A DNA stretch of 64,000 bases from Candidatus Eiseniibacteriota bacterium (GTDB taxonomy: Bacteria; Eisenbacteria; RBG-16-71-46). Location: assembly GCA_963717935.1 (NCBI GenBank), contig CAVQXP010000001.1:1-64000 (forward strand). Reading direction: 5' to 3'. Each line of letters opens with the position of its first letter. Position 1 is the first letter of the stretch. Shown one piece after another: positions 11,228 to 55,186 of the stretch. The notes beneath the pieces are model-generated. The model made no database searches. It was not told the DNA's origin and was given only the letters and a program-made list of their open reading frames with translations. The position numbers and the translations under genes are program-made.

Positions 11228-11479
11228 CCGGTCCCGGGAACTCGCAGGAGGCACCCGGCCCTCGTCGCCCGCAAGCCACCCCCTGCGGCGGGCCTTCGGC
11301 CGGCATTGTAGCCGCCGCCTGACTCCGGGTCACCGTGGTCCGCTTCCCAAACCGGCCTCCGCCCTGCTAGCGTCCGCTCTCCGACCGGCCATGCCGATCT
11401 CCCGGGAGAACCTCATGCGCAAGCCCACGACTGCCGCTGCCGAACCGCTGCTCGGACCCCGAGCGGGCGCGCGCTGACC

Positions 11480-12541: not shown

Positions 12542-12550
12542 GCGGATCGG

Positions 12551-17672: not shown

Positions 17673-18029
17673 ATGCCACGCGCAAAGACCGTCGTCCCCG
17701 GACGTGCCCGCCGCCGCAAGACCCTCAAGGCGGCCAAGGGCAACATCGGTGGACGGCGCAAACTCATCAAGAGCGCGATCCAGACCGTGCAGCGCGCGGG
17801 TCAGTTCGCCTACGAGCACCGGCGCACCCGCAAGCGCGACTTCCGGCGGCTCTGGATCACGCGCATCAACGCCGCGGCCCGCATCAACGGGCTCTCGTAC
17901 AGCATGCTCATCGCGGGCCTCAAGCGCGCGCACATCGACGTGAACCGCAAGCTTCTCGCCGACCTCGCGGTCCGCGACGCGGCGGCGTTCGCCAAACTCG
18001 CGGAGGTCGCGAAGTCGGTGGCGGCCTAG
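17673..18029 (+). CDS. rplT: 50S ribosomal protein L20
   Basis: [27 protein letters not shown]. Confidence 0.97.
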
Positions 18030-22349: not shown

Positions 22350-22376
22350 TGAGGGGGAGTCCCCAAGAGCCATCCC

Positions 22377-22594
22377 ATTCCCTGCCGTGCTCGTGATGTC
22401 TAACAGTTCTTGAACCAACTCTGATCTCAAAGGGACCCCTGGTGGCCGGTGATGCCAGGCCACGGCCCCCCGGGACACCGCCCCGCGGCGACGCGGGACG
22501 GCCGGGGACCGCGGGAGGCGGATCCGGTCGAAGAGGACCCACCTGGCTCGCCAGGTCTCAAGAACTCAACCGCACACGGCATTTCGGCGGGGAT
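22377..22594 (+). ncRNA. ssrS: 6S RNA
   Basis: Conserved zapA-6S-rny position; closing stem TCCCTGCCG/CGGCGGGGA, inner pairings GTGCTCGTG/CACACGGCA-like and AGTTCTTGA/TCAAGAACT around a central bubble. Confidence 0.85.
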
Positions 22595-22774
22595 TCCTAA
22601 GGCCCCGGCGCCCGTCGCGCGCCCCGGCCAGAGCAGGCGCCGCAGGACCACCGGTGCGCCGGACGCACCCGGACCGGCGCGCAGGCGGGTCGCAGGGACC
22701 CGCCCCGCGCAGGCTGGAAGGGGGCGGGCTCGCGCGGCCGGCCAGGTTCCCTCGACGCCCTGCCGGGAGAGACC

Positions 22775-24337: not shown

Positions 24338-24347
24338 GGGAGGCCTC

Positions 24348-26024
24348 CTGAACATCCTCTTCATCGCCGACGTGATCGGCGCGCCGGGCCGCGACGTGGT
24401 GAAGGCCCTGCTGCCCGCGCTGCGGCAGCGCTACGATGCGCACCTCGTCATCTGCAACGTCGAGAACTCCGCGGGCGGCTTCGGTCTCAACCGGGACTCG
24501 GGCGAGAGCCTCGCCGCGGCGGGCGTCGACGTCTTCACCGGCGGCAATCACCTCTGGGACCGCAAGGAGAGCACGGCGTACGTCGCCGGGGAGCCGCGGC
24601 TGGTGCGCCCGGCGAACCTGCCGCCCGGCACACCGGGTGAGGGCTGGCGGGTCTTCCGCGCCGCCGACGGCACGACGGTGGGCGTCGTGAGCCTGCTGGG
24701 GCGTGTCTTCATGAAGGAGGCCGACTGCCCCTTCCGCACCGCGGACCGCGTGCTCGCGGAGCTGAAGGACCGTTGTCAGGTCGTGTTCGTGGACTTCCAC
24801 GCCGAGACCACGGCGGAGAAGGTCGCCATGGGCTGGCACCTCGACGGCCGCGCCACCGTGGTCGTGGGCACGCACACGCACGTGCAGACCGCCGACGAGC
24901 GCGTGCTGCCCGGCGGCACCGCCTTCCTGTGCGACGCGGGGATGACGGGCGGCTTCGAATCCGTGATCGGCATGGACCGCCATGCGGCGCTCGCGCGCTT
25001 CCTCACGCTGCTGCCGCAGCGCCTCACACCCGCCGCTGGCGACCCGCGCCTGAACGGGGCGCTCGTCGAGGTGGACCCGGCCACGGGCCGCGCGCGCTCG
25101 ATCCGCCGCCTCGCGGTCCCGGTCCCGGCCACCGAGCCGCCGGCGGGGCTGCGCCTGCTGGGCGGGGAGGAGCCTGCCTCGACCGCCCGGATGGCCGCGC
25201 ACGCCGAGGTCCAGCGCCTGCGCGCCGGCGGGGTCGAGACCACCCTGGCGCTGGTTTCGGTCGGGGAGGATCCGGCCTCGCAGATCTACCTGAAGAAGAA
25301 GTCCGCGGCCTGCGCCGAGGTCGGGATCCGCGTCCTGGAGGCCGCGCTGCCGGCGGGTACCGGGACCTCGGCGGTGGTCGAGCGCGTGCGGGCGCTGGGC
25401 GCCGATCCGAAGGTCCACGGCATCCTGGTGCAGTTGCCCATGGTCGGGCCCGCGGATCCGCGCGCAGTCCTCGAGGCCGTGCCCCCGGACAAGGACGTGG
25501 ACGGCTTCCACCCGGTGAACGTGGGCCGTCTCGCCGAGGGGCTGCCGGGATTCGTGCCCTGCACACCGCTCGGCATCTACGAGCTGTTGCGCCACCACGA
25601 GATCCCGCTCGCCGGCCGCCACGTCGTGGTGCTGGGGCGCAGCAACCTGGTCGGGCGCCCGCTGGCGACCCTGCTCTCGCGCAAGGGCGTGGACGCCACC
25701 GTCACGCTCGGCCACAGCGCGAGCGGACCGGCTCTGAAGGAACTGGCCGCGATCGCGGACATCCTGGTGTGCGCCACCGGCCGCCCCGAGTCGGTCACCG
25801 CCGAGTGGATCAAGCCCGGCGCCACGGTCGTGGACGTGGGCGTGCACCGCATCCCCGATCCGACCCGCCGCAGCGGCACCCGGCTCGCGGGCGACGTCGA
25901 GTTCGGCTCGGTCTCGAAGGTGGCGGGCGCCCTCACCCCGGTGCCCGGCGGCGTCGGTCCCATGACCGTGGCGATGGTGCTCGCGAACACCGTGCTCGCC
26001 GCCTCGGGGACGCTCGCCCGCTAG
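24348..26024 (+). CDS. folD: Fusion: YmdB/TIGR00282 metallophosphoesterase plus FolD methylene-THF dehydrogenase/cyclohydrolase
   Basis: GGGGAGG SD plus CTG start giving MNILFIADVIG; NVEN, GNH, DFHAE, GTHTHVQTAD; then GEDPASQIY..KK, HGILVQLP, KDVDGFHP, PCTP, GRSNLVGRP, TPVPGGVGPMT. Confidence 0.9.
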   Translation: MNILFIADVIGAPGRDVVKALLPALRQRYDAHLVICNVENSAGGFGLNRDSGESLAAAGVDVFTGGNHLWDRKESTAYVAGEPRLVRPANLPPGTPGEGWRVFRAADGTTVGVVSLLGRVFMKEADCPFRTADRVLAELKDRCQVVFVDFHAETTAEKVAMGWHLDGRATVVVGTHTHVQTADERVLPGGTAFLCDAGMTGGFESVIGMDRHAALARFLTLLPQRLTPAAGDPRLNGALVEVDPATGRARSIRRLAVPVPATEPPAGLRLLGGEEPASTARMAAHAEVQRLRAGGVETTLALVSVGEDPASQIYLKKKSAACAEVGIRVLEAALPAGTGTSAVVERVRALGADPKVHGILVQLPMVGPADPRAVLEAVPPDKDVDGFHPVNVGRLAEGLPGFVPCTPLGIYELLRHHEIPLAGRHVVVLGRSNLVGRPLATLLSRKGVDATVTLGHSASGPALKELAAIADILVCATGRPESVTAEWIKPGATVVDVGVHRIPDPTRRSGTRLAGDVEFGSVSKVAGALTPVPGGVGPMTVAMVLANTVLAASGTLAR

Positions 26025-28746: not shown

Positions 28747-31320
28747 ATGATCGCCACAGGCACGACGACGCACGACCGCAGGGGAACCGCACGAGTCGCC
28801 CTGGCCGCGCTGCTGGCGGTGGCGGCCCTGACCGTGGCCGGGGCCCTCGGCTGCAGCCAGAAGCTGCAGGGCCAGTTCATCCCGAACCAGCGCCCGACCG
28901 TGCGGCTCACCTGGGCCCCGATCGACACCACGAGCGAGTTCTTCTACGTCTACCGGATGAACTGGGTGGGCTTCGACCCGGACGGGCGCGTGACCGGCTT
29001 CCAGTACGTCGTGGACCCGCCGACGCAAGCCGGGAGCGACACGCCCTGGGTGAGCACGACGAACAACGAGCGGACCATCACGTTCACCGCCACCCAGCCC
29101 GAATCGCTGCCTACCCCGGGCCATCCTCGCATCCCCCGCAGCCAGAGCTTCCACGTGTTCGTGATCCGTTCGGTGGACAACCTGGGCGCGGTCTCCGAGC
29201 CGATCAAGCGCGCGTTCTACTCCTTCGGCGTCGCGCCCGTCGTACAGATCGAGGCGCCCCGGCCCTCGCCCCTGATCTCGCCCGCGGTGACGCCCGCGGT
29301 GCGCATCCGCTGGACGGGCAAGGACTTCGTCGATCCGAACGGGTTCGTGTTCGAGAAGCCGGTCCGGTACAAGTACGCGCTCTACAAGCGGGGCCCCAGC
29401 ATCCCGTGGAACGCCTGGCTCCAGGATCCCGATTCCCTGCGCAGGCTGGTCGCGCCGGAGTTCGCGGGCTGGGACTCGACCGGGCCCGACAGCGCGGAGG
29501 TGCAGTACACGAACCTCACGCCGAACAGCGAGTACCTGTTCGTGGTCGTGGCCATCGGGCGCTCGGGCGCGTATTCGCCGATCTTCGACCTCAACTCGAA
29601 CATGCTGCGGATGGCCGTGGGGCTCGCGGGCCAGCTCGGGCCGCGGATCACGCTTTTCAACTCGTTCTTCCAGTTCACCTACCCGAGCGGCGGTTTCCCG
29701 TCGCCACTGGATCCCTCGTGGGCGATCCAGCTCCAGATCCCCGCCGGGCAGCCTCTCACGTTCAACTGGACCGCCGAGCCCCCGGCGGGCTCGATCATGA
29801 AGCGCTATCGCTGGGTGCTGGACCTCGAGAGCCTGGACGACGAGACGCCGCGCACCAGTCAGGACGACTGGTACCACTGGAGCCCCTGGAGCCAGACGAC
29901 CACGGCGATCGTCGGTCCCTTCGCGGGGGCTGACACCGGCGAGGTGCACAACTTCTACCTCGAGGCTGAGGACATCAACGGGCTCGTGAGCCTGGGGTGG
30001 GTCCAGTTCCGGGTGTACCGGCCGACGTTCAACAAGGAACTGCTGATCGTGAATGACACGCGGTTCAACGTGGACCAGTACGTGGTGAACCGGACGGACA
30101 CGCTGCGGGCTCCGAGCGGCGTCTGGCCCACGCGCGCCGAGCTGGACACGTTCCTGTTCGCGGTCGGGGGGGTGCGCTGGAAGATGACCCCGTCGTCCCC
30201 ACTCTACGCGGTCCGGCCGAGTCCGCAGGGGATCTTCAAGGGCTACAGCTACGACACGCTGGGGACGCGCTACGGCCAGGAGAACCCCACGATCCCGCTC
30301 GGGTTCCTCGGCCAGTACCGCCACATCATCTGGATGACGGACCTGCGGGGCTCGCTGCTGGAGCTCCCGTCTACGTCTTCGACGCTGCCCACGACGACGC
30401 TGCTCTACATGTCCAGGCCCAACCGGCAGAACACGCTGGCGACCTGGGTGAGCCAGGGCGGCCAGCTGTGGGCGCTCGGCTCCGGGTTCGGCAACGCCAC
30501 GAACTCGCCCTGGAACAACCTGGGCAACGACGTCAACTCGGTCCGGGCCTACCGGTTCGACGGCACGCGACCCGACCTGACGCCGGGGCGGTTCATGTTC
30601 GACCTCGCGCACTGGCGCTCGGAGTTCCGGGTCTTCGGACCGGTCTTCGTGCGTTTCGCGCGCTATGACCAGCCGGACCCGGGGGTCGGTTACCCGTATC
30701 CGACGACCTACTGGAGGGGCGGGCACTTCACGAACCCGGACGTGGACTACACGGTGCTGCCGACGACGCTGGAGCCCCGCGATCCGTCGACGGACCCGAT
30801 CTGGCCGTTCCGCTCGCTCGGCGACTTCTACGTCGGCAACCAGATCTACAGCGCCAACGGCATCAACATCGAGTTCCTCAGCCTCCAGAACTTCATCATC
30901 GAGGAGCTCCCGGTGCCTTCGCCCACGAACCCGGACTCGACCGTCGAGCGCTCGACGCTCGACAGCCTGTACCTGGTCTACGGGAGCGCCTACCCCACGC
31001 AGATGCTGCAGTCGACCGCCGGGCAGGGCGTGAACACGGTGATGACCTACTACCACGGGCCGGAGAACGCGCCGCTGGTGTTCTCGGGGACGGACATCTG
31101 GACGTTCCGGCGGCAGGACTGCGTGGCACTGGTGGACTTCGTTCTGGGCAAGCTGTGGGGCGTGCACAGGAGCACTTCCTACGCGCCGCGCGCCGTGGCG
31201 CCCAGCCTCACGCGCCCGGCCGGATCTCCGCTGCGGTCCCAGTCACCCTCCACCGATGCGTCTCCCCGCAAGCCGCGTCCGATCGCGCCGGGCAGGGGAG
31301 CGGGACCCGGGAAGCGCTGA
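28747..31320 (+). CDS. Large hypothetical lipoprotein with tandem Ig/FN3-like domains
   Basis: Lipobox ALGC; three beta-rich W...(Y/F).Y modules; strong GC3 coding bias. Confidence 0.75.
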   Translation: MIATGTTTHDRRGTARVALAALLAVAALTVAGALGCSQKLQGQFIPNQRPTVRLTWAPIDTTSEFFYVYRMNWVGFDPDGRVTGFQYVVDPPTQAGSDTPWVSTTNNERTITFTATQPESLPTPGHPRIPRSQSFHVFVIRSVDNLGAVSEPIKRAFYSFGVAPVVQIEAPRPSPLISPAVTPAVRIRWTGKDFVDPNGFVFEKPVRYKYALYKRGPSIPWNAWLQDPDSLRRLVAPEFAGWDSTGPDSAEVQYTNLTPNSEYLFVVVAIGRSGAYSPIFDLNSNMLRMAVGLAGQLGPRITLFNSFFQFTYPSGGFPSPLDPSWAIQLQIPAGQPLTFNWTAEPPAGSIMKRYRWVLDLESLDDETPRTSQDDWYHWSPWSQTTTAIVGPFAGADTGEVHNFYLEAEDINGLVSLGWVQFRVYRPTFNKELLIVNDTRFNVDQYVVNRTDTLRAPSGVWPTRAELDTFLFAVGGVRWKMTPSSPLYAVRPSPQGIFKGYSYDTLGTRYGQENPTIPLGFLGQYRHIIWMTDLRGSLLELPSTSSTLPTTTLLYMSRPNRQNTLATWVSQGGQLWALGSGFGNATNSPWNNLGNDVNSVRAYRFDGTRPDLTPGRFMFDLAHWRSEFRVFGPVFVRFARYDQPDPGVGYPYPTTYWRGGHFTNPDVDYTVLPTTLEPRDPSTDPIWPFRSLGDFYVGNQIYSANGINIEFLSLQNFIIEELPVPSPTNPDSTVERSTLDSLYLVYGSAYPTQMLQSTAGQGVNTVMTYYHGPENAPLVFSGTDIWTFRRQDCVALVDFVLGKLWGVHRSTSYAPRAVAPSLTRPAGSPLRSQSPSTDASPRKPRPIAPGRGAGPGKR

Positions 31321-31461: not shown

Positions 31462-31909
31462 TTGAACCGGAGCCAGCGTCACGGGACCGTTCTGGATTGC
31501 CCTCATCATCGGGTTCCTCGTCCAGGGCTACAAGGGTCTGGCCTGGTTCTTCACGTATCGCCGCTGGAACCTGCGGCGCTTCGTCGAGACCGGCGGCATG
31601 CCCTCGGCGCACGCGGCTGCGGTCTCGGCGCTCACGACCGCGGTGGGCCTCGCGCAGGGGTTCGGCTCGGTCCTGTTCGGCGTGACTCTCTACTTCAGCC
31701 TCGTCATCATGTACGATGCGGCGGGCCTGCGCCGCGCCGCCGGGCGGCAGGCAGTCATCCTGAACCGGCTGATCGACGAGCACTTCGTGCATCCCGAGGC
31801 GGACACGCAGCGCCTCATGGAGTTGCTCGGTCACACGCCCTTCGAGGTCGCGGTCGGGGCGATCCTGGGCGTGACCAGCGCGTTGCTCTGGAACTGGGTC
31901 CTGGGATGA
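31462..31909 (+). CDS. Divergent PAP2 family (DUF212) membrane protein; 1-nt frameshift near 31468
   Basis: TGGMPSAH, VIMYDAAGLRRAAGRQA, LLGHTPFEV; TTG start joins the frame if one C is removed. Confidence 0.85.
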
Positions 31910-33804
31910 GCCTGCTCGAGGGCATCCACTCGCCCGCCGATCTGAAGGCGCTCTCGCGCGAGCAGATCACCGCGCTCGCCGCCGAGTTGCGCCACGTCAT
32001 CATCCAGACGGTGGCGCGCCGCGCCGGTCACCTGGCGCCGAACCTCGGCGTCGTCGAGTTGACGCTCGCGCTCCACCGGGTGTTCGACTCGCCCCGGGAC
32101 AAGATCATCTGGGACGTGGGGCACCAGTGCTACCCGCACAAGCTGCTCACGGGCCGCTACGAGCGCTTCGACACACTCCGCACCGCGGGCGGCATCGCCG
32201 GCTACCCCCGGCGCGCCGAGAGCGAGCACGACCCCTTCGGCGCCTCGCACGGGAGCACCTCGATCTCGGCCGCGCTGGGCTTCGCCGTGGCCCGCGATCT
32301 GCGCGGCGGCAACGAGCACGTCGTGGCGGTGATCGGCGACGGCGCGCTCACCGGCGGTCTGGCCTACGAGGGGCTCAACAACGCGGGCGAGCTGCAGAAG
32401 CGGCTCATCGTGGTCCTCAACGACAACGACATGAGCATCGCCCCCAACGTCGGGGCGATCGCACACTACCTGACCAAGCTCACGACCAGCCGCATCTACC
32501 GGCGCTTCGAGCGCGACGTCTGGGAGTTGCTGGGCAAGCTGCCACCCGGCTGGCGGGCGCGCGAGGGCGCGCGGCGCATCAAGGAGGGGCTGCAGAACCT
32601 GGTCGTGCCGACCGTCCTCTTCGAGGAGCTGGGCTTCAAGTACTTCGGACCGATCGACGGCCACGATCTCGACACGCTCCTGGAGACCCTGGACGACCTC
32701 AAGCGCTTCGAGGGCCCCACGCTGCTGCACGTGGTGACGACCAAGGGCAAGGGCTACGGCCCGGCCGAGCTGGACAAGACCACCTTCCACGGGGTGGGCG
32801 TCTTCGACCCCGAGACCGGGGAGGCCTCGAAGGGCGCGCGCCAGACCTACACCGGCGTCTACGGCCAGGCCGTGACCGAGATCGGCAAGCAGGTGCCCGA
32901 GGTGGTCGCGGTGACCGCGGCGATGACCGACAACACCGGCCTCAAGTGCTTCTCGAAGGAGTTCCCGGAGCGCTTCTTCGACGTCGGCATGGCCGAGGAG
33001 CACGCGGTCACCTTCTCGGCCGCGCTCGCCGCGAACGGCCTCATCCCGCTCACCACCATCTATTCGACCTTTCTGCAGCGCGCCATCGACCAGATCCTGC
33101 ACGACGCTGCGGTCCAGGACCTCTCCATCATCCTGGTTGTCGACCGCGCGGGGCTGGTGGGGGAGGACGGCGCCCCGCAGCACGGCGCCTTCGACGTCAC
33201 CTACCTGCGCATGGTCCCCGGCATGACGCTGATGGCGCCCGCCAACGGCGAGGAGCTGCGCGACATGATCTGGACGGCGGTGAAGCTGCAGCCCACCGCG
33301 AAGGGACCGATCGCCGTGCGCTTCCCGCGCGCCCCGATCCCCGAGGCGGCCCTGCCCCAGCGCCCACCGGCGCTGATCGCGCCGGGCACGGCCCAGCAGC
33401 TGCGCGCCGGGGGCGACGTCGCGCTCATCGCGCTCGGCACCATGGTGCTGCCCGCGCTGGCGGCCGCCGAGTTGCTCGCCGCCGAGGGCGTCTCCGCCAC
33501 GGTCGTCAACGCCCGCTTCGTCTGCCCGCTCGACGAGCGCGTCATCACCGGGCTGGCCCGCTCGGTCGGCCGCATCGTCACGGTCGAGGAGAACGTCCCC
33601 ATGGGCGGCTTCGGCAGCGCGGTGAGCGAATGCCTCGATCGCAACGACCTCTCGGCGACGCCGCTGATGCGCATCGCGCTGCCCGAAGGGTTCGTGTCAC
33701 ACGGCAAGCGGGACGCGCTCCTGCAGCAGGTCGGGCTCGACGGGGCCGGCATCGCCCGCCGGACCCGCGAGTGGGTCCGCGCCCAGCAGCTCCACTTCTC
33801 ATGA
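31906..33804 (+). CDS. dxs: 1-deoxy-D-xylulose-5-phosphate synthase
   Basis: WDVGHQCYPHKLLTGR, GDGALTGG, NDN, DVGMAEEHAV, YSTFLQRA, DRAGLVGEDG; ATGA overlap start. Confidence 0.97.
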   Translation: MSLLEGIHSPADLKALSREQITALAAELRHVIIQTVARRAGHLAPNLGVVELTLALHRVFDSPRDKIIWDVGHQCYPHKLLTGRYERFDTLRTAGGIAGYPRRAESEHDPFGASHGSTSISAALGFAVARDLRGGNEHVVAVIGDGALTGGLAYEGLNNAGELQKRLIVVLNDNDMSIAPNVGAIAHYLTKLTTSRIYRRFERDVWELLGKLPPGWRAREGARRIKEGLQNLVVPTVLFEELGFKYFGPIDGHDLDTLLETLDDLKRFEGPTLLHVVTTKGKGYGPAELDKTTFHGVGVFDPETGEASKGARQTYTGVYGQAVTEIGKQVPEVVAVTAAMTDNTGLKCFSKEFPERFFDVGMAEEHAVTFSAALAANGLIPLTTIYSTFLQRAIDQILHDAAVQDLSIILVVDRAGLVGEDGAPQHGAFDVTYLRMVPGMTLMAPANGEELRDMIWTAVKLQPTAKGPIAVRFPRAPIPEAALPQRPPALIAPGTAQQLRAGGDVALIALGTMVLPALAAAELLAAEGVSATVVNARFVCPLDERVITGLARSVGRIVTVEENVPMGGFGSAVSECLDRNDLSATPLMRIALPEGFVSHGKRDALLQQVGLDGAGIARRTREWVRAQQLHFS

Positions 33805-34679
33805 GCGCCCGCCTGCGCCGGATCGCGATCTCGGGCCACATCGGCCGGCCCGGCGTGCGCCGCGCCACCGCGCTCCTGTGCACGAGCCTCGCCCGCCGCG
33901 GCTGCGACGTCCGGATCGAGCAGGCCCTGGCCACCGCCCTGGGACGCGAGGGCCGGCCGCTCTCGCAGCTCGCCGCCTGGTGCCAGCTCCTGATCTCGCT
34001 GGGCGGCGACGGCAGCGTGCTCACCGGCGGGCGCGCGCTCGCCGGCCGGCGGGGAGCCCTGCTCGGGGTCAACTTCGGCGGCCTGGGCTTCCTCGCCGCC
34101 GCCGAGCAGGCCGAACTCATGCCGGCGGTGGACGCCGCGCTCGCGAGCGCCTGGCCCGTCTCCCCGCGGCGGCTGCTGCGCGCACGCGTGCTGCGCCACG
34201 GCCGCAGCCTGGCGCGCGCGCTCGCCATGAACGACGCGGTGGTGAAGGGAGCGGGCGGCTACGCCGCCATCCACCTGCAGATGCGCGCGCGCGGCCAGGA
34301 CCTCGGCCATCTCGTGGCCGACGGCCTCATCACCGCGACCGCCGCCGGCTCGACCGCCTACTCGCTCTCGGCCGGCGGCCCCGTGCTCTCGCCCGAGGTC
34401 GAAGCCATCGTGGTCACGCCGGTCTGCGCCCACTCGCTCGGCAGCCGCTCGCTCGTGCTCTCGCCGAACGAGGAGATCGCGCTGCGGCTCATCGGCTCGC
34501 TCGACCAGACCGTGCTCATGCTCGATGGCCAGGAGCACGTGCCGCTCGAGCCGGAGGATGAGATCCGCATCCGGCTCGACCGCGCGGCCGTGCGCGTCGT
34601 GCGCAACCCCGCCCGCCCCTTCGCGCACTCGCTCCAGGTCAAGCTCGGCTGGCAGGGGAGTACGCGGCGGAGCATGTAA
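33801..34679 (+). CDS. nadK: NAD(+) kinase
   Basis: LGGDGS, GVNFGGLGFL, ND, DGLITATAAGSTAYSLSAGG. Confidence 0.92.
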   Translation: MSARLRRIAISGHIGRPGVRRATALLCTSLARRGCDVRIEQALATALGREGRPLSQLAAWCQLLISLGGDGSVLTGGRALAGRRGALLGVNFGGLGFLAAAEQAELMPAVDAALASAWPVSPRRLLRARVLRHGRSLARALAMNDAVVKGAGGYAAIHLQMRARGQDLGHLVADGLITATAAGSTAYSLSAGGPVLSPEVEAIVVTPVCAHSLGSRSLVLSPNEEIALRLIGSLDQTVLMLDGQEHVPLEPEDEIRIRLDRAAVRVVRNPARPFAHSLQVKLGWQGSTRRSM

Positions 34680-34681
34680 TC

Positions 34682-36364
34682 GTGCTCGAACGCCTGGTCA
34701 TCCGCGACCTCGTGCTGGTGGAGCGGGCCGAGGTGGAATTCGGCCCGGGCCTCAACGTGGTGACCGGGGAGACCGGCGCGGGCAAGTCCCTGCTGGTGCA
34801 GGCCGTGGACCTGCTCACCGGCGGCCGCGCCGACCCGGGCGTCGTGCGCGTGGGCGCGAAGGCCGCGGTGGTCGAGGGCGAGTTCCGCCCTTCGCCGCGC
34901 GCCGCCCTGCGGGTCGGGCCGCTGCTCGCATCGTGGGGCATCGAGTGCGACGGTGAGAGCCTCATCCTCCGGCGCGAGGTCCAGACCGGCGGCAAGAGCC
35001 GTGCCCTGGTGAACCAGTCGGCGGTGACGCGAGGCGCGCTGCGGGAGCTGTGCGAGGCGCTCGCGGACCTCCATGGCCAGCACGAGCACCAGAGTCTGCT
35101 GCGCGCCGACGCGGGCCTCGAGACCCTCGATCGGCTCGCGGCGTTCGAGGGTGAGAGCGCCCGCTACGCGCAGGCGCTGTCCGCCTGGCGCGCTGCCGCC
35201 TCCCAACTCGAGGCGCTCGAGCGCTCGCTGGCGACGTACGCCGAGCGGCGCGAGTGGATGGAGCAGGCGGCGCTCGAGCTGGACGAGGCACGCCTGCGCG
35301 AGGGCGAGGACGACGAGCTCCGGCTCGAGGCCGCGCGCCGGGCCCACGCCGACCGCCTGCGCGAGCTGGTGGAGCAGGCGCTCGGGCGGCTCTCGGATGG
35401 CGAAGCGCCGGCCGTGGACGCCATCGCCCAGGCCGGGCGCGCGCTCGAGCAGGCGGCCGCGCTCGACCCGAGCCTCGCGGAGTCCCTGCCTGCGCTCGAC
35501 GAGGCGCGCATCGCCGCGACCGAGGTCGCGCGCGCTCTCGGCGAGTATGCCTCGCGCCTCGAGGCCGACCCGGCCGCGCTGGAGCAGATCGAGTCCCGGC
35601 GCGAGACGATCGCCCGGCTCGTGCGGAAGCACCGCCGCGACGTGCCCGCGCTGATCGCCTGGCGCGTGGAGCTGGGCCGTGAGCTCGCCACGGGGGAGGA
35701 CGCCGAGGCCGCGCTGTCGCGCGCGCGCGCCGCCGCGCAGGAGACGCACGCGGCCTGCCACGCCGCGGCGCGCGCCCTCTCGCGCAGACGTCAGGCGGCC
35801 GCGAAGGAGTGGGGGATGAGGCTCACGAAGGAGATGAAGCCGCTCGGGATGCAGCATGCGAGCCTCGGCTTCCGGGTCGAGCCGGACGACGGCCCGGAGC
35901 CCGCCTTCGCTGCGCACGGGCTCGACCAGGTCGAGATCATGTTCAGCGCCAACCCGGGCGAGCCTGCCCGGCCGCTGCAGCGGATCGTCTCGGGCGGCGA
36001 GCTTTCCAGGGTGATGCTGGCTCTGAAGGTAGCGCTGGAAGCCCAAGACCCCGTTGACCTTCTGCTGTTCGATGAAGTGGATTCCGGGATCGGCGGCGCG
36101 GTCGCCCAGGCGGTCGGGGAACGCCTCAAGCGCCTGGCGCGGCACCGCCAGGTCATCTGCGTGACCCACCTGCCGATGATCGCCGCCCTCGCCACCCATC
36201 ACCTGCGGGTGGACAAGTCCGTGGCGGCGGGCCGCACGGTGGCGCGCATCGTGGTGGTCGAGGACGGAGCGCGCGTCGAGGAACTCGCCCGGATGCTGGC
36301 CGGCGACCGCGTCACCGACACCACACGGCGTCAGGCCCGCGAGTTGCTGGGGGCGGGCGCGTGA
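34682..36364 (+). CDS. recN: DNA repair protein RecN
   Basis: TGETGAGKS, HGQHEHQ, SGGELSRVML, FDEVDSGIGG, THLP. Confidence 0.96.
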   Translation: MLERLVIRDLVLVERAEVEFGPGLNVVTGETGAGKSLLVQAVDLLTGGRADPGVVRVGAKAAVVEGEFRPSPRAALRVGPLLASWGIECDGESLILRREVQTGGKSRALVNQSAVTRGALRELCEALADLHGQHEHQSLLRADAGLETLDRLAAFEGESARYAQALSAWRAAASQLEALERSLATYAERREWMEQAALELDEARLREGEDDELRLEAARRAHADRLRELVEQALGRLSDGEAPAVDAIAQAGRALEQAAALDPSLAESLPALDEARIAATEVARALGEYASRLEADPAALEQIESRRETIARLVRKHRRDVPALIAWRVELGRELATGEDAEAALSRARAAAQETHAACHAAARALSRRRQAAAKEWGMRLTKEMKPLGMQHASLGFRVEPDDGPEPAFAAHGLDQVEIMFSANPGEPARPLQRIVSGGELSRVMLALKVALEAQDPVDLLLFDEVDSGIGGAVAQAVGERLKRLARHRQVICVTHLPMIAALATHHLRVDKSVAAGRTVARIVVVEDGARVEELARMLAGDRVTDTTRRQARELLGAGA

Positions 36365-37848
36365 CGGCCGCGCACGACCGTCCCGTGACTCCCGGGCGCG
36401 ACGAGTTCCGCGCGCTCGCGGCGGGCGGCAGACATGTCCCGGTCTACCGCGACGTCCCCGCCGACCACGAGACGCCCGTCTCCGCCTTCCGCAAGCTCGA
36501 CGACGGTGCCCACGCCTTCCTGATCGAGAGTCTCGAGGGTGGCGAGAAGTGGGGGCGGTTCTCCGCGCTGGGGAGCAGGCCCACGCTGGTCTTCACGGCC
36601 CGCGGCGAGCGCTGCGAGATCCTCGAGGACGGTGTCACGCGCCCCTGCGCCGGCCCGCCCCTCGATGAGTTGCGGGACCTGCTCGCGGGACGCCACGCCG
36701 TCGCCCTGCCGGGACTGCCGCGCTTCTGCGGGGGCGCGGTGGGCTACCTCGGCTGCGGCGCCGCGCGCTGGTTCGGGCGACGGACCGCGAAGGCGCCCGC
36801 CGGGCCCGGGCCGCCCGATGCCGTGTTCCTCGTCACCGGCGTCGTCACCGTCTTCGACCACGTCGCGCACACCGTCAAGGTCGTGACCCACGCGCGCGGA
36901 GGGGACGACCCCGACGCGGCGTGGGCAGCGGCGGTCGGGCGCCTCGACGCGGAGATCGCGCGGCTCGAGGCCCCGCTGGCCTGGCCTGCGACGGCGGCCG
37001 GGACCCCGCTCGGGCAGCCCGCCTCGTCGTCCACGCCCGAGCGGTTCCGGTCCGCCGTCGAACGCGCCCGGGCGCACATCCGCGCGGGGGACGTGCTGCA
37101 GCTGACGCTCGCGCGGCGCCTGAGCGTGCCCGTCCAGGTGCCCGCCTTCGAGACCTACCGAGCGCTGCGCCTGACCGCCCCGTCGCCCTACAGCCACTTT
37201 CTCAGGCTCGGCGGCCTCTGTCTCGCGGGCTCCGCGCCCGGCTCGCTGGTGCGCCGCGCGGATGACGTGGTCGAGGCGCACATCCTCTCGGGGACGCGGC
37301 CGCGCGGCCGCACACCGGAGGAGGAGCGCAGGCTGGAGGAGGAGCTGCGCGCCGGGGAGCGGGAGCGCGCGGCCCACGCTCTGCGCGTGGACCTGAGCCG
37401 CAGCGACGTGGGCTGCGTGGCCGAGCCCGGCACCGTCGACACCAGCGAGTGGATGGAGGTGGAGCGCCATTCGCAGGCCATGCACCTGGGGTCCACCGTC
37501 CGTGGCCGGCCGCGGCAGGACGCCGGCCCGCTGGACCTGCTGGGGGCCTGCTTCCCCGCCGGCGGCGACTGCGGCGTGCCCCGGCCCCGGGCCCTGGAAC
37601 TCATCGAGGAGCTGGAGCCGGCGTCGCGCGGGGTCCACGCCGGGGCGGTCGGATACTTCGACCTTCGAGGCGGCCTGGACCTGTGCAGCGCCGCGCACAC
37701 GCTGGTCCTCGCCGACGGGCGCGCCGACTGGAGCGCGGGGGCCGTGATCGCCGCGGACACCGACCCCGAGGCGGCGTGGCGCGAGACCCAGGACCAGGCC
37801 CGCGGGCCGTGGCTCGCCCTTCAGCGCGCCACGGGAGCCTCGCGATGA
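36361..37848 (+). CDS. Anthranilate synthase component I-like (TrpE/MST fold), active-site residues substituted
   Basis: D.ETPVSAF, FLIESLEGGEKWGRFS, FCGGAVGY, PSPY, GTRPRG retained; EH.MLVDLGRND, GTVSGAPK, IRT and E..ET..KA motifs altered. Confidence 0.8.
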   Translation: MTAAHDRPVTPGRDEFRALAAGGRHVPVYRDVPADHETPVSAFRKLDDGAHAFLIESLEGGEKWGRFSALGSRPTLVFTARGERCEILEDGVTRPCAGPPLDELRDLLAGRHAVALPGLPRFCGGAVGYLGCGAARWFGRRTAKAPAGPGPPDAVFLVTGVVTVFDHVAHTVKVVTHARGGDDPDAAWAAAVGRLDAEIARLEAPLAWPATAAGTPLGQPASSSTPERFRSAVERARAHIRAGDVLQLTLARRLSVPVQVPAFETYRALRLTAPSPYSHFLRLGGLCLAGSAPGSLVRRADDVVEAHILSGTRPRGRTPEEERRLEEELRAGERERAAHALRVDLSRSDVGCVAEPGTVDTSEWMEVERHSQAMHLGSTVRGRPRQDAGPLDLLGACFPAGGDCGVPRPRALELIEELEPASRGVHAGAVGYFDLRGGLDLCSAAHTLVLADGRADWSAGAVIAADTDPEAAWRETQDQARGPWLALQRATGASR

Positions 37849-38437
37849 TCGGGGTCATCGACAACCACGGCGCCTTCATCGGCAGCCTGCTGCAGTACCT
37901 GGCCACGCTCGGTGCACGCTTCGAGGTCCACGCGAACGACGCCATCACGGCCGAAGCGCTGGGCGCGCGTCCGATCGAGGGCCTGGTGCTGTCGTCCGGG
38001 CCGGGGGATCCGACGGCTGCCGGCGTGACGCCCGAAGCGATCCGCCGGTTCGCCGGCCGCGTGCCCATCCTGGGCATCGGCCTCGCTCACCAGGCTCTGG
38101 CCCAGGTCTACGGCGCGAAGCTCGCACCGGCCCCGGACCTCCTGCACGGCACGACGAGCCCCGTGCTGCACCGGGGCCGGGGCCTCTTCGCCGGTCTCGA
38201 GAACCCCTTCGCGGCAGCGCGCTATCATGCGCAGGTCGTGGAGCGCGAGTCCCTGCCCCGCACCCTCGAGATCACGGCCTGGACCCCCCAGGGGGAGATC
38301 ATGGGGCTGCGACATCGCGATCACGAGTGCTGGGGTGTACAGTTCCCGCCCCAGTCCATCCTGACCTGCCCGGGCCTCAGGCTCGTGGAGAACTTCCTTG
38401 TCGCTGTGCCGCCATCACAAGGGAGGTACCCCAGTGA
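37845..38437 (+). CDS. TrpG/PabA-like glutamine amidotransferase homolog lacking the catalytic triad; 3' end frameshifted
   Basis: IDN, GPG.P, RYH, IMGLRH recognisable; GIGLAHQ replaces GVCLGHQ and QFPPQS replaces QFHPES. Confidence 0.8.
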
Positions 38438-39442
38438 TCCGCATGGCCATCGCACGCGCGGTGCTCCGCGAGGACCTGCCGCGGGAGCTGGCGCGCGCCA
38501 GCATGGAGCAGATCCTCGACGGCGACGCCACGCCGGCGCAGATCGGCGCCCTCGCCGTGGCCCTGCGCATGAAGGGCGAGACTCCCGACGGAGATCGCCA
38601 GCATGGCCGAGGCGATGCGCGAGCGCGTGCCACCCATCCGCACCAAGCGCGCGCCGCTGCTCGACACCTGCGGCACCGGCGGCGACAACGCCGGCACGTT
38701 CAACATCTCGACCACCTCGGCCATCGTGGTGGCGTCGTGCGGCGTGGCGGTGGCCAAGCACGGCAACCGCGCGGTCTCGAGCCGCACCGGGAGCGCCGAC
38801 GTGCTCGAGGCCCTGGGCGTGGGCCTCGATCTGACCCCGGAGAGCGCCGCGCGCTCGCTCGACCTGCTGGGCATCACGTTCCTGTTCGCGCCCAACTACC
38901 ACGCCGCGCTGCGCCACGCCGCGGGGCCGCGTCGCGAGGTCGGCATCCGCACGATCCTCGACCTGCTCGGCCCGCTCACCAACCCGGCCGGCGCGCGGCG
39001 GCAGCTGATCGGCGTCTTCTCCGACCGTCTGGTGCGCCGCATCGCCGAGGTCCTGAAGATCCTCGGCAGCGAGCGGGCCTGGGTCGTGCACGGCCTCGAC
39101 GGACTGGACGAGCTGACGGTGCGGGGACGCTCTCACGTCGCCGAGCTGGACCGCGGCCAGATCCGCGAATTCGAGGTGGACCCCGGGCCCCTGGGTCTCG
39201 CGCACGCCGAGCGCAGTGGCCTCGAGGGCGGGGACGCGGCCGCCAACGCCGTGCGGATCCGCGCCGTGCTGGCGGGGGAGAAGGGGCCGGCGCGCGACAT
39301 CGTCGCGCTCAACGCGGGTGGCGCGCTGGTCGTGGCCGGCGTGGTGGGGGATCTCGCCGGGGGCGTGGCGCAGGCCCAGGAGGCGATCGACAGCGGGCGT
39401 GCCGCGCGCAAGCTCGACGACCTCACGGCCTTCCGGGACTGA
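38434..39442 (+). CDS. trpD: Anthranilate phosphoribosyltransferase; 1-nt frameshift near 38590
   Basis: GGAGGT SD plus GTG; LRMKGET; DTCGTGGD, FNISTTSA, KHGNRAVSSRTGSADVLE, GPLTNP, DGLDE. Confidence 0.9.
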
Positions 39443-39466: not shown

Positions 39467-40105
39467 ATGTTCTGCATCCGCTGCGGCGCCAACCTGCCCG
39501 AAGACGCGGCATTCTGTGCATCCTGCGGAGCCCCCGTCACCAGCGGCACGGCCGCGGCCGCGGCGGCCTCACCGCCGCCCGGCGCGGTCTCCGGGCCCTG
39601 GGCGGCCGTTCCGGCCGAACTGCCCGCGGTCCGCGCGACACGGGACTACAGCGGTTTCTGGCGCCGCTTCTGGGGCCATGTGATCGACCGCTTCATCCTC
39701 GGCGTGGTGTTCGTGCCCGTGAGCTTCATGGTCCTCGTGCCGATGATGGCCACCGAATCGGCCGGATGGACGGACACCGATCTGCCGGCCGAGGCGATCA
39801 CCGCGCTCCTGGGGGCCATCCTCGCCGTGGCATTCTTCGAGCTGTTGGGCAGCTGGCTCTACAGCGCGCTCCTGCAGAGTTCGTCGAGGCAGGCCACGCT
39901 CGGCCAGCTCGCGCTCGGCATCCACGTCACGGATCTCGAGGGACGGCGTGTCTCCTTCGCCCGCGCGAGCGGGCGCCACTTCGCGACCGTGCTCACCGGC
40001 CTCACCTTCGGCATCGGCTACCTCATCATGCTCTTCACGACGAGGAAGCAGACCCTGCACGACCTGATCGGCGGCACCGTCGTCGTGCGAACCGATCCCG
40101 CGTGA
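39467..40105 (+). CDS. RDD family membrane protein with N-terminal zinc ribbon
   Basis: MFCIRCG...FCASCG; YSGFWRRF...ID; QATLG; KQTLHDLIGGTVVV. Confidence 0.9.
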   Translation: MFCIRCGANLPEDAAFCASCGAPVTSGTAAAAAASPPPGAVSGPWAAVPAELPAVRATRDYSGFWRRFWGHVIDRFILGVVFVPVSFMVLVPMMATESAGWTDTDLPAEAITALLGAILAVAFFELLGSWLYSALLQSSSRQATLGQLALGIHVTDLEGRRVSFARASGRHFATVLTGLTFGIGYLIMLFTTRKQTLHDLIGGTVVVRTDPA

Positions 40106-41712
40106 GCCGCGGGCGCCTCCCTGTTGGTGCTCCCGCCCGCGAACCCCGCCTGAGCGCGGCAGGCGGCACGGCGCGGCGCGAGGTCCTCGTGGACCTGGTC
40201 GCGATCCTCGGCGCGTGGGTCGTCTTCGCCTTCGCCCTCGGACGCGGCTCCCTGGTCACCGCCTACGACGTCTTCCGCGACATGTCCTATGCGCAGGCCA
40301 TCCTCCAGGGGCACCTCTCGCAGGACCCCTCGATCCCGGGCTTTCGCGCGTGGTATCCGCCGGGGAACCCGCTCACCTTCGCGGGGCTGGCGACCCTGAC
40401 GCGGATCTCACCGGTGGATCTCTACGCGACCAGCCTCTACTGGCTCGGCTGGATCAATCCGGTTGCCCTCTATCTTCTGGTGCGCTCCCGTTGGGGCCGC
40501 GCCACGGCGCTTGTGTCCCTGGCCACCGTCCTCCTCGGTTCGTTCTGGTGGTTCACCCACATGGCCATGCCGATGGCGAGCATCCAGGGCGTCGCGCTGG
40601 GCCTGCTCGCCCTGCTCGCCTGGACGACCGATCGCGGCCGCGGGTTCCGCCGCGCGGCCCTCACGGGCGTGCTCCTGGCGCTGGCGATCTGGCACCATCC
40701 GATCTGCGGAGCGCTGGCGATGGGCAGCATCGTCGTACACGGAGCGGTCGCCGCGTTGCTCCCGGCGAACCGTGGCGACCCGGTCGCGTCCCGCTTCGAA
40801 CTCGCGAAGAGGGCCGCGCTGGCCAGCGCCGTGGGCCTCCTGCTCGCCGCACCGCTGCTCCTGGGCCAACTCGGCCTGTCCCGGACGAACGCGGCGCCGC
40901 ACCACTGGTTCGCGCCCGAACTCCACGACCCGCGCTTCGCGTTCCACCTGCATGCGCCGCTGATCGTGCCGCTCGGCCTCGTCGGGCTGTGGCTCGCTGC
41001 GCGCCGCTGGCGCGAGGAGGGCTGGCTCGTGGCCTATTTCGGCATCGGGCTCGCCGGGCAGATCGCCGGATACCTCGGCCATGACGCCGGATGGGGGATC
41101 CCCTGGGCGCTGCCGCACGAGTTCCAGTGGCACGAGCAACTCGCCCTGATGGTCGCAGCGGCCATCGCCACCGTCCGGCTTGCCACCTGGCTCGCCGCCG
41201 GCGTGCGGGGCGCACGGCGGGACCTGGCGCGTCGAGCCGGCATCGCCACGCTCCTCGCGCTGAGCACGGGACCCGCCCTGTTCAACCTGCCGCTCGCGAG
41301 TTCCTATCTGATGCGGCTCGACGAGCGTTGGCAGGCCTCGCTGGCGACGGCCCGCTGGATCCGCGCGAACACGCCCCTCGAGGCCGTGTTCGCGTGCCCG
41401 CCGGAGACGGGCTACTTCCTCTCCGGGCTCACCGGGCGCCGCTGCCTCGCACTGCCTCCCGGGCACATGAATCCCGCACTCGACGCGGAGGCACGTTACG
41501 CCGACGTGGCCGAGCTGTTGAACACGCCCGACGAGGAAGTCTTCCGGCGCCTGGCGGCGCGGTACGGTGCCACGCATCTTCTCGTCACGCCCGCGCCGCG
41601 CTTCCTGGCCCGCGCCCGGGAGACCTACGCCCGCTGGCGGTGTCTCGAGCCCGCCGGTCTCGCGGACAGCACGGTGCTCCTCTATCGCATCCGGCGGCCC
41701 ACGGGCCGCTGA
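40102..41712 (+). CDS. Multi-pass membrane protein, probable GT-C fold glycosyltransferase
   Basis: GTGA overlap start; about 11 TM segments; first loop 'D..RD...A..I..G....DP...G...WYPPG'; C-terminal 'ARWIRANTP..AVF' periplasmic domain. Confidence 0.6.
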   Translation: MSRGRLPVGAPAREPRLSAAGGTARREVLVDLVAILGAWVVFAFALGRGSLVTAYDVFRDMSYAQAILQGHLSQDPSIPGFRAWYPPGNPLTFAGLATLTRISPVDLYATSLYWLGWINPVALYLLVRSRWGRATALVSLATVLLGSFWWFTHMAMPMASIQGVALGLLALLAWTTDRGRGFRRAALTGVLLALAIWHHPICGALAMGSIVVHGAVAALLPANRGDPVASRFELAKRAALASAVGLLLAAPLLLGQLGLSRTNAAPHHWFAPELHDPRFAFHLHAPLIVPLGLVGLWLAARRWREEGWLVAYFGIGLAGQIAGYLGHDAGWGIPWALPHEFQWHEQLALMVAAAIATVRLATWLAAGVRGARRDLARRAGIATLLALSTGPALFNLPLASSYLMRLDERWQASLATARWIRANTPLEAVFACPPETGYFLSGLTGRRCLALPPGHMNPALDAEARYADVAELLNTPDEEVFRRLAARYGATHLLVTPAPRFLARARETYARWRCLEPAGLADSTVLLYRIRRPTGR

Positions 41713-41945: not shown

Positions 41946-43012
41946 ATGCCAGACGTCCCGCCCGTGACCCCCGAACCCGATCCGGAAGCTCCCGGCCTGC
42001 GCGTCTTCCCGGCCGCCCGCGATCACGCCGTCCGCGAGCTGGCGGGCATGTTCGACGACGTCTCCGGCCGCTACGACCTGCTGAACTCGATGATGACGCT
42101 CGGGCAGGACCGCGCCTGGCGCGCGGCCATGTGGCGCGCCGTGCCGGAGACCGCGGGCGTCGTGCTCGACCTGTGCACCGGCACCGGCGTCTCGCTCGAC
42201 GGACTGCGGCGCCCCGGCCGCGTCCTGCTGGGCGTGGACGCGAGCCTCCGCATGCTGGAACTCGCCGCGGACGAACATGGGCCGTGGGGCTGGGCCCCGC
42301 GCCTCGCCTGCGCCGATGCCTTCCGGCTGCCGTTCCGCGACGGCGCGCTCGACGCGGTCACGATCGCCTTCGGCATGCGCAACCTGCGCCCGCGGGCCGG
42401 GGCCCTGGCGGAGCTGGCCCGCGTGCTCGCACCCGGCGGCACGCTCGTGGTGCTCGAGGCCACGGCGCCCCGGCCGGGCCCGCTCGCGCCCCTGCACCGA
42501 TTCTACGCGCGCCGCGTCATCCCGCTCCTGGGCCGGCTCTCGCCGGACCCCGTGGCCTACCGCTACCTGAGCGAGTCCATCTTCGACTTCGGCGCGGGGG
42601 AGGAGTTCGAGCACGATCTCACCGCGGGCGGCTTCGAAATCGTCGAACGTCAGGCGTATCATGTTCGGTGCAGCCCGCTTGTGGGCCGCCCAGAGGCTGG
42701 CCGGGGGGGACGGCGGGACGTTGCGAAACGCCCGGTCCAGGGCCGCTGGTCGGGGCAATTTCACGCAGGGTGGCCGTCCCTGGGAACAGGAGTGGCGCTG
42801 GTGGACGTTCGCTCACGCGATCGTCTCCGCGATCCTGACCGGGAGCCTGGTCTGGGCCCTGGTCACCTGGGTCAAATGGCGGTCCGCCATCCACTTGGAA
42901 CCCTGGCAGGATCGCATTCTCTGGCTTCTCATCCTCGTCGGCCTGGCCGGATTCGCCCTCCGGACCCTTGCCCTGCTCCTGCGATTGCTCGGCCCGCCTC
43001 CCCGCCGCCTGA
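41946..43012 (+). CDS. ubiE: UbiE/MenG C-methyltransferase, apparently with a C-terminal 2-TM extension; frameshift near 42660, 3' end uncertain
   Basis: MFDDVSGRYDLLNSMMTLGQDRAWR, VLDLCTGTG, IAFGMRN, AYRYLSESI; continues as MFGAARLW in the next frame. Confidence 0.75.
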
Positions 43013-52673: not shown

Positions 52674-52719
52674 TCGCCGTCCCGAGTCGCACCGAACCCC
52701 TCACCCCTTCCAAGAGGCC

Positions 52720-55186
<2,467 letters not shown>

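Follow-up and report, generated by a model that had tools for sequence, protein, structure and literature searches.

The window analysed here, a 64,000-nt stretch from a Candidatus Eiseniibacteriota bacterium (assembly GCA_963717935.1, contig CAVQXP010000001.1, positions 1 to 64,000), encodes between recN and trpD a homolog of each subunit of anthranilate synthase, TrpE and TrpG, and in both the catalytic residues have been replaced. The two are best explained, at a probability of roughly 0.55, as a clade-wide pseudoenzyme pair, kept by selection in a non-catalytic role at the ancestral trpE/trpG locus. The common ancestor of one Candidatus Eisenbacteria subclade lost the catalytic residues of both subunits, in TrpE those of the chorismate/Mg2+ site and in TrpG the Cys-His-Glu triad, after which purifying selection kept both genes as folded proteins: pseudoenzymes, not pseudogenes. 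Judging from the residues lost, the pair would make neither ammonia nor anthranilate. The TrpE-like and TrpG-like proteins probably still associate, since they lost catalysis together, have the same ratio of non-synonymous to synonymous substitution rates (omega), and are coupled by an ATGA overlap. Their non-catalytic role would be tied to the tryptophan branch, for example by ligand binding via the conserved N-terminal LLES region, or by stabilising or regulating a partner; TrpD would then draw its anthranilate from a second synthase elsewhere or from salvage. The genes concerned are:

36361..37848, + strand: trpE-like gene, 495 aa, with Anth_synt_I_N and Chorismate_bind domains
37845..38437, + strand: trpG-like gene, 196 aa in relatives, with a GATase domain; its proper stop is at 38435-38437
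38434..39442, + strand: trpD (anthranilate phosphoribosyltransferase), with Glycos_trans_3N and Glycos_transf_3 domains

Active-site residues of the TrpE-like protein

Aligned to the solved TrpE chains 7bvd_A, 5cwa_A, and 5kck_A, the TrpE-like protein has GSAPG for GSSPE, ERAAHALRVDLSRSD for ERAEH..VDLGRND, GGDCGVPR for GTLSGAPK, CSAAHT for AIAIRT, GAVIAADT for GGGVVADS, and AAWRETQDQ for E..E...K; the LIES and PSPY motifs are both retained. All of the TrpE substitutions listed in an earlier reading of the sequence alone (the initial annotation) are borne out by this alignment, as are the two motifs it reported as present. The main codons are:

37240..37242, + strand: codon of G294; all 95 canonical Eisenbacteria TrpE have the SPE-motif Glu here
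37372..37374, + strand: codon of A338, the Glu of the AEH motif in canonical TrpE
37564..37584, + strand: codons of G402-D403-C404-G405-V406-P407-R408, T-V-S-G-A-P-K in canonical TrpE
37774..37797, + strand: codons of A472 to Q479 (AWRETQDQ), E-W-x-E-T-x-N-K in canonical TrpE

For a count of conservation, 11 key positions were chosen as pocket or catalytic residues; their functional roles (general-acid Glu, Mg-ligand Glu, and others) are presumed ones. Of 149 representatives of other TrpE clusters, 135 have the canonical residue at all 11, and among the 95 canonical Eisenbacteria TrpE the conservation of each position is 98% or higher. The window protein departs from the canonical residue at nine (G294, A338, S348, G402, R408, H426, H446, A472, and Q479) and retains two (H375 and E475). 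What is missing includes the presumed general-acid Glu (G294) and two of the three presumed Mg-ligand Glu (A338 and A472); the Thr and Lys of GTxSGAPK and the carboxylate-site Arg and Gly are also replaced.

Every NCBIfam TrpE and PabB equivalog cut-off is missed: the window protein scores 358.7 against TIGR00564 (cut-off 517.7) and 388 against NF010086 (cut-off 693), and its ortholog at the related locus L001 scores 353 and 367. The TrpE of L002, a canonical Eisenbacteria locus, passes TIGR00564 at 545.6. The domain architecture of TrpE is present (Anth_synt_I_N and Chorismate_bind, Pfam E 6.9e-22 and 2.8e-60), and an AlphaFold model with a predicted local distance difference test (pLDDT) score of 83.9 and a predicted template-modelling (TM) score of 0.87 superposes on the TrpE structures 5cwa and 7bvd at TM 0.87-0.89. 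The TrpE-like protein is therefore predicted to keep the MST fold.

The glutaminase triad of the TrpG-like protein

In the TrpG-like protein, aligned to the solved PabA/TrpG chains 6qur_A and 8rp1_AAA, residue 79 is Gly, in PILGIGLAHQ (PILGVCLGHQ in the solved chains); residues 168 and 170 are Pro and Gln, in QFPPQS (QFHPES in the solved chains); and DNYDSF has become DNHGAF. The initial annotation had placed the loss of all three triad residues at codons 38079, 38346, and 38352, and the alignment agrees:

38079..38081, + strand: codon of G79, in place of the nucleophile Cys
38346..38354, + strand: codons of P168-P169-Q170, in place of the triad His-Pro-Glu

Cys is absent from 34 of 121 TrpG rows, and 33 of these form a close group at 70-90% identity. 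Within this group the Cys position is Gly in 32 members and Asp in one, the triad Glu position is Gln in 32 and Glu in one, and the triad His position is Pro in 25, Thr in three, Ala in two, Leu in one, and still His in two; the DNYDSF and GHQ positions are also relaxed. The one Cys-lacking row outside the group, P0167, has Gly at the Cys position and retains His and Glu. The triad is intact in the remaining 87 rows. The subfamily cut-off of TIGR00566 (121.05) is passed by the window protein (159.2) and by its L001 ortholog (163); all TrpG equivalog models are failed, by canonical L002 as well, so that these do not discriminate. The structure model has a pLDDT of 74.7.

Sequencing error was considered as a source of the substitutions in the two proteins and rejected, as the same changes occur in independent assemblies; the initial annotation was right that indel errors cannot explain them.

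Might the pair be a working anthranilate or aminodeoxychorismate synthase with unconventional residues? In domain architecture, in fold, and in operon position it matches trpE and trpG, the TrpD encoded downstream is under strong selection and needs anthranilate, and databases label clade members as anthranilate synthase. Against this stand the change of nine of 11 near-universal active-site residues, the failed TrpE and PabB equivalog cut-offs (passed by L002), and the loss of the nucleophile Cys in all 33 members of the close TrpG group, which together make a working synthase very improbable. The SPE Glu, Gly in the TrpE-like protein, is presumably also the equivalent of Glu252 in the homolog MbtI. 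According to an excerpt of the MbtI study, Glu252 protonates the leaving hydroxyl (PMC8008425).

Distribution among relatives

The same TrpE losses are present in 25 of the best 120 TrpE matches (P0001-P0024 and P0031), at 64-88% identity; 20 of these 25 rows are 494-495 aa long, and every close TrpE relative found shares the losses. The other 95 of the best 120 have canonical motifs, all with Glu at position 294, are mostly 488 aa long and about 58-64% identical to the query, and include some named Candidatus Eisenbacteria. In a tree of 60 rows (a quick LG+G4 search), the 25 catalytically dead rows form a single clade (SH-aLRT 100, stem 0.27) nested in canonical Eisenbacteria TrpE. One outgroup row, L030, also fell inside the clade; it contains 12 stops on a branch of 4.2, and was ignored as an artefact.

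Degenerate TrpE homologs are rare but recurrent among the 149 representatives of other clusters, three of which are heavily changed at the key positions. P0241 (339 aa, partial, Eisenbacteria-like) has five of 11 changed and is 71% identical to canonical P0025. In common with the dead clade it has N348S, K408R, E472A, and the AAWRET stretch, and it keeps the SPE and AEH Glu, the Tyr, and the Arg. By these shared residues it is a possible intermediate, hinting at stepwise degeneration. P0263 (seven of 11 changed, 38% identical to the query) and P0381 (five of 11, 34%) belong to unrelated lineages, and may be independent cases of degenerate TrpE.

A genome scan returned 80 loci: two from the dead clade, two canonical Eisenbacteria loci, and 76 others with TrpE genes at 37-45% identity, mainly from Desulfobacterota-type metagenome-assembled genomes (MAGs). 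The dead-clade loci are L001 (JANXPZ010000141.1) and L004 (OY970178.1, a 3.62-Mb chromosome), two independent assemblies; the canonical ones are L002 and L003. Both dead-clade loci have the order dxs-nadK-recN-trpE-trpG-trpD-RDD. Canonical L003 matches it from dxs to trpD, with no RDD match, and canonical L002, a 6-kb contig, matches it from the 3′ part of recN to RDD. Because all four loci share this gene order, the dead genes are positional orthologs of working trpE and trpG rather than spare paralogs, and occupy the ancestral locus. In the window, the neighbouring genes are:

31906-33804, + strand: dxs (open reading frame (ORF) list and Pfam)
33798-34679, + strand: nadK (ORF list and Pfam)
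34682..36364, + strand: recN, an ORF with SMC_N/AAA Pfam matches, the upstream neighbour of the trpE-like gene
39467-40105, + strand: RDD-family gene, hypothetical, downstream of trpD

Selection on the two genes

Codon models (GY+F3X4) were fitted to three genomes, the window, L001, and L004, and gave the following values of omega:

dxs: 0.040
nadK: 0.047
recN: 0.084
trpE-like: 0.154
trpG-like: 0.144
trpD: 0.030
RDD: 0.175

An omega of 1 is rejected for both members of the pair, with twice the log-likelihood difference at 220 for trpE-like and 89 for trpG-like; the test is approximate, with kappa fixed on a 5-point grid around its free estimate. Nei-Gojobori (NG86) dN/dS values for the pair are higher, 0.35-0.45, but the codon-model values are preferred, because NG86 inflates at 95% G+C in third codon positions (GC3): for dxs it gives 0.18, which falls to 0.04 under GY+F3X4. 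L003, a canonical locus, was left out of the trpG codon analysis: in its trpG (11461-12051), residues from about 68 to 110 are out of frame before the frame returns, and the garbled stretch looks like a compensating pair of indel errors.

The reading frames are also well kept. The three genomes show no indels in trpE (1485 nt) or over the first 552 nt of trpG, at synonymous distances of 0.2-0.36, and 22 of the 25 dead-clade TrpE proteins align to the query without an internal indel. GC3 is 0.92-0.97 in the genes, and its periodicity is intact. Sites that vary in the dead clade tend to vary in the canonical clade too (Spearman 0.45 for TrpE, 0.43 for TrpG). Canonical TrpE has 280 positions with a conservation of at least 95%; in the dead clade 188 of them are unchanged, 53 are relaxed, and 39 have a newly conserved residue, defined as a different residue at least 80% conserved in the dead clade.

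The initial annotation had offered two explanations, a pseudoenzyme complex or genes in early decay. The second would make the pair pseudogenes whose frames are open only since stops are rare at 72-75% G+C. Composition does lend it something: the window is 68-76% G+C, about 72% overall, and while GC3 marks the reading frames sharply, a 455-aa ORF also runs on the strand antisense to the trpE-like gene. An open frame alone is therefore weak evidence here. In the window, moreover, trpG lacks its stop and trpD is frameshifted (see below), and the pair evolves faster than its other neighbours except RDD. Neutral decay is nevertheless excluded by the values of omega, the scarcity of indels, the pattern of site variability, and the predicted fold: omega = 1 is rejected for both genes, the losses are common to a clade that has diverged to 64% identity almost without indels, and its members hold the ancestral locus. 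Early decay thus falls away as an explanation, with hardly any probability left to it. The marks of a pseudogene, a broken frame or neutral evolution, are lacking: the trpE-like frame is intact in the window, L001, and L004, and the trpG-like frame in L001 and L004, the window copy of the latter having two 1-nt insertions at its 3′ end. The other proposal finds support, if by pseudoenzyme is meant a protein without its catalytic residues that purifying selection maintains. The annotation had also suggested asking whether the active-site losses recur in relatives at dN/dS below 1, and they do: the losses recur across the clade, and omega in the three genomes modelled is about 0.15.

The former active site and the feedback region

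Mean entropy over 24 former active-site positions is 0.68 in the dead clade, where the whole protein averages 0.70; the corresponding values for the canonical clade are 0.06 and 0.61. The former active site has lost its special conservation. The extra variability of the dead clade is concentrated at residues 341-480, the catalytic half, and its least variable stretches are residues 41-60 (the LLES segment, entropy 0.31), 161-180, 281-300, and 381-400. This distribution suggests that catalytic constraint has been lost, with constraint retained on the fold and on some of the surface.

A new activity or ligand in a remodelled pocket, for example a Mg2+-independent chorismate reaction or the binding of another small molecule or metal, is a further possibility. 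It would use D403, C404, R408, and the His residues at 167, 279, 307, 426, and 446. The chorismate mutase activity of a related enzyme, MbtI, appears without Mg2+. Titles in the reference list of PMC8008425 also call MbtI promiscuous, with chorismate mutase activity. The 39 newly conserved positions can be read in this way: they include V403D, K408R, E472A, and N348S, and S404C falls just below the invariance cut-off (Ser in 95% of the canonical clade, Cys in 96% of the dead one). Taken as a whole, though, the pocket does not exceed the remainder of the protein in conservation, and it contains variable positions (T402, Y426, R446, G460, A310, and T312); at 75-88% identity most positions look conserved anyway. 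Canonical-invariant glycines and an Arg have changed (G462V, R446H), and the triad His of TrpG shows plain loss rather than replacement. On these grounds a remodelled pocket seems quite unlikely.

TrpD and the frameshifts of the window

TrpD is canonical and strongly constrained. Against TIGR01245 (cut-off 199), the proteins of L001 and L004 score 403 and 396, the C-terminal piece of the window protein scores 349.7, and both pieces of the window trpD match TrpD models; its omega is the lowest of the neighbourhood. As TrpD is canonical by hidden Markov model (HMM) and the most constrained protein nearby, it would have to get anthranilate from another source.

A nucleotide alignment of the region from dxs to RDD (the window against L001 and L004) contains exactly three non-triplet coding indels, near 38401, 38417, and 38589, in each of which the window has gained 1 nt; dxs, nadK, recN, and trpE have none. 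Owing to the first two, the window trpG frame runs past its proper stop to 38834. In L001 and L004 the protein is 196 aa long and ends in ...ENFL(A/S)LCRQPREVPQ at the GTGA overlap with trpD. The third insertion splits the window trpD, which L001 and L004 have as a single frame; the window TrpD shows no raised amino-acid divergence (dN 0.018 to L001). The initial annotation's description of open, coupled genes therefore holds for the trpE frame and for the overlaps, and does not hold for trpG as assembled, which is not closed. Similarly, TrpD is motif-intact, as described there, in being canonical by HMM, but its frame in the window is broken near 38589.

Other genes of the window are broken as well. 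The essential leuS (leucyl-tRNA synthetase) lies in at least four frame segments (52702-53346, 53658-53810, 53821-54186, and 54188-55174); the infC segment (16931-17254) holds the IF3 C-terminal domain only, and the rplT segment (17763-18020) begins at profile position 30 of 107. The N-terminal parts of infC and rplT are probably in other frames, through more indel errors. Since leuS, rplT, and infC are broken too, clustered indel errors are a property of the window assembly, and since the insertions in trpG and trpD are absent from L001 and L004 and resemble the errors that break leuS, they too are most likely assembly errors.

Weighing the pseudoenzyme reading

The junctions of the four genes have the following features:

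36361-36364, + strand: GTGA overlap of the recN TGA stop and the trpE-like GTG start, conserved in L001 and L004
37845..37848, + strand: ATGA overlap of the trpE-like stop and the trpG-like start, with the same overlap in L001-L004
trpG-like/trpD junction, + strand: GTGA overlap, conserved in L001 and L004
38419..38426, + strand: AAGGGAGG, Shine-Dalgarno-like, 7 nt before the trpD GTG, read from the sequence and conserved in L001 and L004

They bear on what is, after a non-catalytic role, the next explanation to consider: that the two proteins have no function of their own, and that their frames are kept open and foldable only through operon coupling and the cost of misfolding. Stops or frameshifts would uncouple trpD or exert polar effects on its expression, and misfolding-prone variants would be costly. 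The 4-nt overlaps at all three junctions from recN to trpD and the extreme constraint on trpD fit this account, as do the absence of special conservation at the former active sites of both proteins and the relaxation of the pair to the level of a hypothetical neighbour. It is nevertheless rather unlikely. TrpD has a strong Shine-Dalgarno-like sequence of its own, and so need not rely on coupling; an omega of 0.15 and a canonical-like pattern of site rates exceed what frame-keeping predicts; the 188 unchanged canonical-invariant positions have persisted down to 64% identity; and deletion of the genes would end the cost, yet they are present in every clade member seen.

Several observations also weigh directly against a conserved non-catalytic role. 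Constraint on the pair is relaxed: dxs, nadK, recN, and trpD have values of omega 2-5 times lower, in a codon test on three genomes only. The RDD-family neighbour has a similar omega, and the level for the pair is therefore not in itself proof of an important role. Within the dead clade, divergence is 3-5 times faster in TrpE-like than in TrpD (74-82% vs. 93-96% identity); between the canonical L002 and L003, TrpE is 80% and TrpD 75% identical, a divergence ratio of 0.8. The newly conserved residues at 39 canonical-invariant positions, such as D403, C404, and several His, leave room for a new pocket function. Beside the retained PSPY motif, three conserved residues, part of the tryptophan feedback motif, have changed (N273A, M278G/S, and Y279H). 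In enteric enzymes, changes in the NPSPYMY feedback motif give feedback resistance. With these three residues altered, retention of tryptophan binding is uncertain. Finally, the three insertions in the window all fall within a span of 190 nt, the 6 kb upstream having none, and in the window genome alone trpG and trpD may really have been broken, very recently.

A narrower form of the pseudoenzyme reading would have both subunits converted into a non-catalytic sensor or regulator of the tryptophan branch, in which binding of tryptophan or chorismate controls or stabilises TrpD or another partner, and anthranilate is salvaged; the N-terminal allosteric region would be retained. The initial annotation had proposed a Trp-sensing scaffold for TrpD of this kind, for which support is indirect: the LLES segment is conserved more than any other part of the dead clade, but the NPSPYMY part of the feedback site has changed. 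The reading is tentative and rather unlikely. If true, it would be a conversion of enzyme to sensor at the ancestral locus of a free-living lineage, and not via a spare paralog.

Other features of the window

No leader RNA, T-box, or riboswitch was found near the pair in an Rfam search of the whole window, which returned only two tRNAs and a 6S RNA. Domains of trpC, trpF, trpB, and trpA are absent from all 48 scanned coding segments of the window, in agreement with the initial annotation, which had described these genes as not adjacent; kynU is likewise absent from all 48. The genes for chorismate synthase (aroC) and DAHP synthase (11474-13510, 23 kb upstream of the pair) look intact, and the organism therefore appears to make chorismate. 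About 90 N-terminal residues of the DAHP synthase lie outside its Pfam domain.

Some further features do not touch the pair. The 6S (SsrS) RNA gene, at 22376-22597 with zapA and rny on either side, scores 68.8 bits in Rfam (cut-off 46.4). At 24345-26015, a YmdB-like phosphoesterase and, after it, the two FolD domains share a single 557-aa frame, either by natural fusion or because two genes were joined by a lost stop or a frameshift. Two large coding segments have no Pfam match: 28795-31167 (791 aa), and 40180-41712 (about 500 aa), which is membrane-protein-like and lies downstream of the RDD gene. A tRNA-Ala(cgc) predicted by ARAGORN at 42270-42355 lies within a ubiE-like coding region, where the Rfam tRNA model is silent, and is probably a false positive.

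Comparison with known systems

The source annotations label the clade proteins “anthranilate synthase component I/II.” To judge by the residues replaced, the pair is probably non-catalytic, and so wrongly annotated as working enzymes in a group of soil bacteria, Candidatus Eisenbacteria; because of these annotations, metabolic reconstructions from Eisenbacteria MAGs would wrongly credit these organisms with the first step of tryptophan synthesis. TrpG/PabA can be shared with para-aminobenzoate synthesis, and its role there could be mis-scored too. Such cases would be caught by inspecting individual residues, for Gly in place of the SPE Glu, Ala in place of the AEH Glu, and Gly in place of the GATase Cys. 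The phenomenon may recur, as two other, unrelated TrpE clusters of the 149 show comparable degeneration.

No dead anthranilate synthase was found in the literature searched (mostly abstracts) on anthranilate synthase, chorismate-utilizing pseudoenzymes, and Eisenbacteria, nor was any bacterial core biosynthetic enzyme with both subunits dead and yet conserved at the ancestral operon. Pseudoenzymes as such are well known, among eukaryotic kinases and proteases and as the prozymes of trypanosomes. The pair described here offers a natural experiment on why an enzyme scaffold is kept after catalysis is gone.

The nearest system for comparison is canonical anthranilate synthase itself, for which TrpE:TrpG structures have been solved from Serratia marcescens (1i7q/1i7s), Salmonella (1i1q), and Sulfolobus solfataricus (1qdl), and TrpE alone from Mycobacterium tuberculosis (5cwa) and M. 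smegmatis (7bvd). The pair shares with it the Pfam domains of TrpE, the GATase domain of TrpG, the predicted fold, the position before trpD, and the coupling, and is about 60% identical to working-type Eisenbacteria TrpE. It differs in the replacement of the TrpE-like catalytic residues and of the whole TrpG triad, and in the scores of the TrpE-like protein, below all equivalog cut-offs.

Two cases come from chlamydial tryptophan pathways, as described in an excerpt of PMC3937554. The TrpA (TrpEa) of Chlamydia trachomatis is catalytically inactive, and the full-length protein is needed for TrpB function (PMC3937554, citing Fehlner-Gardiner, 2002). There too a dead subunit of a two-subunit tryptophan-pathway enzyme is retained, apparently in support of its partner; however, in that case one subunit is dead and its partner works, whereas in the Eisenbacteria pair both are dead and no active partner is known. 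C. trachomatis is also an obligate intracellular pathogen with a reduced genome, while the dead pair is found in MAGs of free-living type, one of them a 3.6-Mb chromosome. The trp operons of C. caviae and C. felis, as well as of C. pecorum, by the same excerpt, lack anthranilate synthase and obtain anthranilate from kynurenine via kynU (PMC3937554). The Eisenbacteria clade would resemble these, which retain TrpD and the steps after it, in keeping TrpD with a non-functional chorismate-to-anthranilate step and anthranilate from elsewhere, but the chlamydiae have deleted trpE and trpG, whereas the Eisenbacteria clade keeps both as putatively dead proteins.

A further comparison is with prozymes, which, according to the abstracts of PMC5201418 and PMC3663545, are dead paralogs that activate an enzyme partner, as in the AdoMetDC and deoxyhypusine synthase of Trypanosoma. 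These too are dead homologs under selection, and they work through complex formation. They are, however, eukaryotic and extra paralogs beside an active copy, whereas the dead pair is bacterial, sits at the ancestral locus, and has no known active copy.

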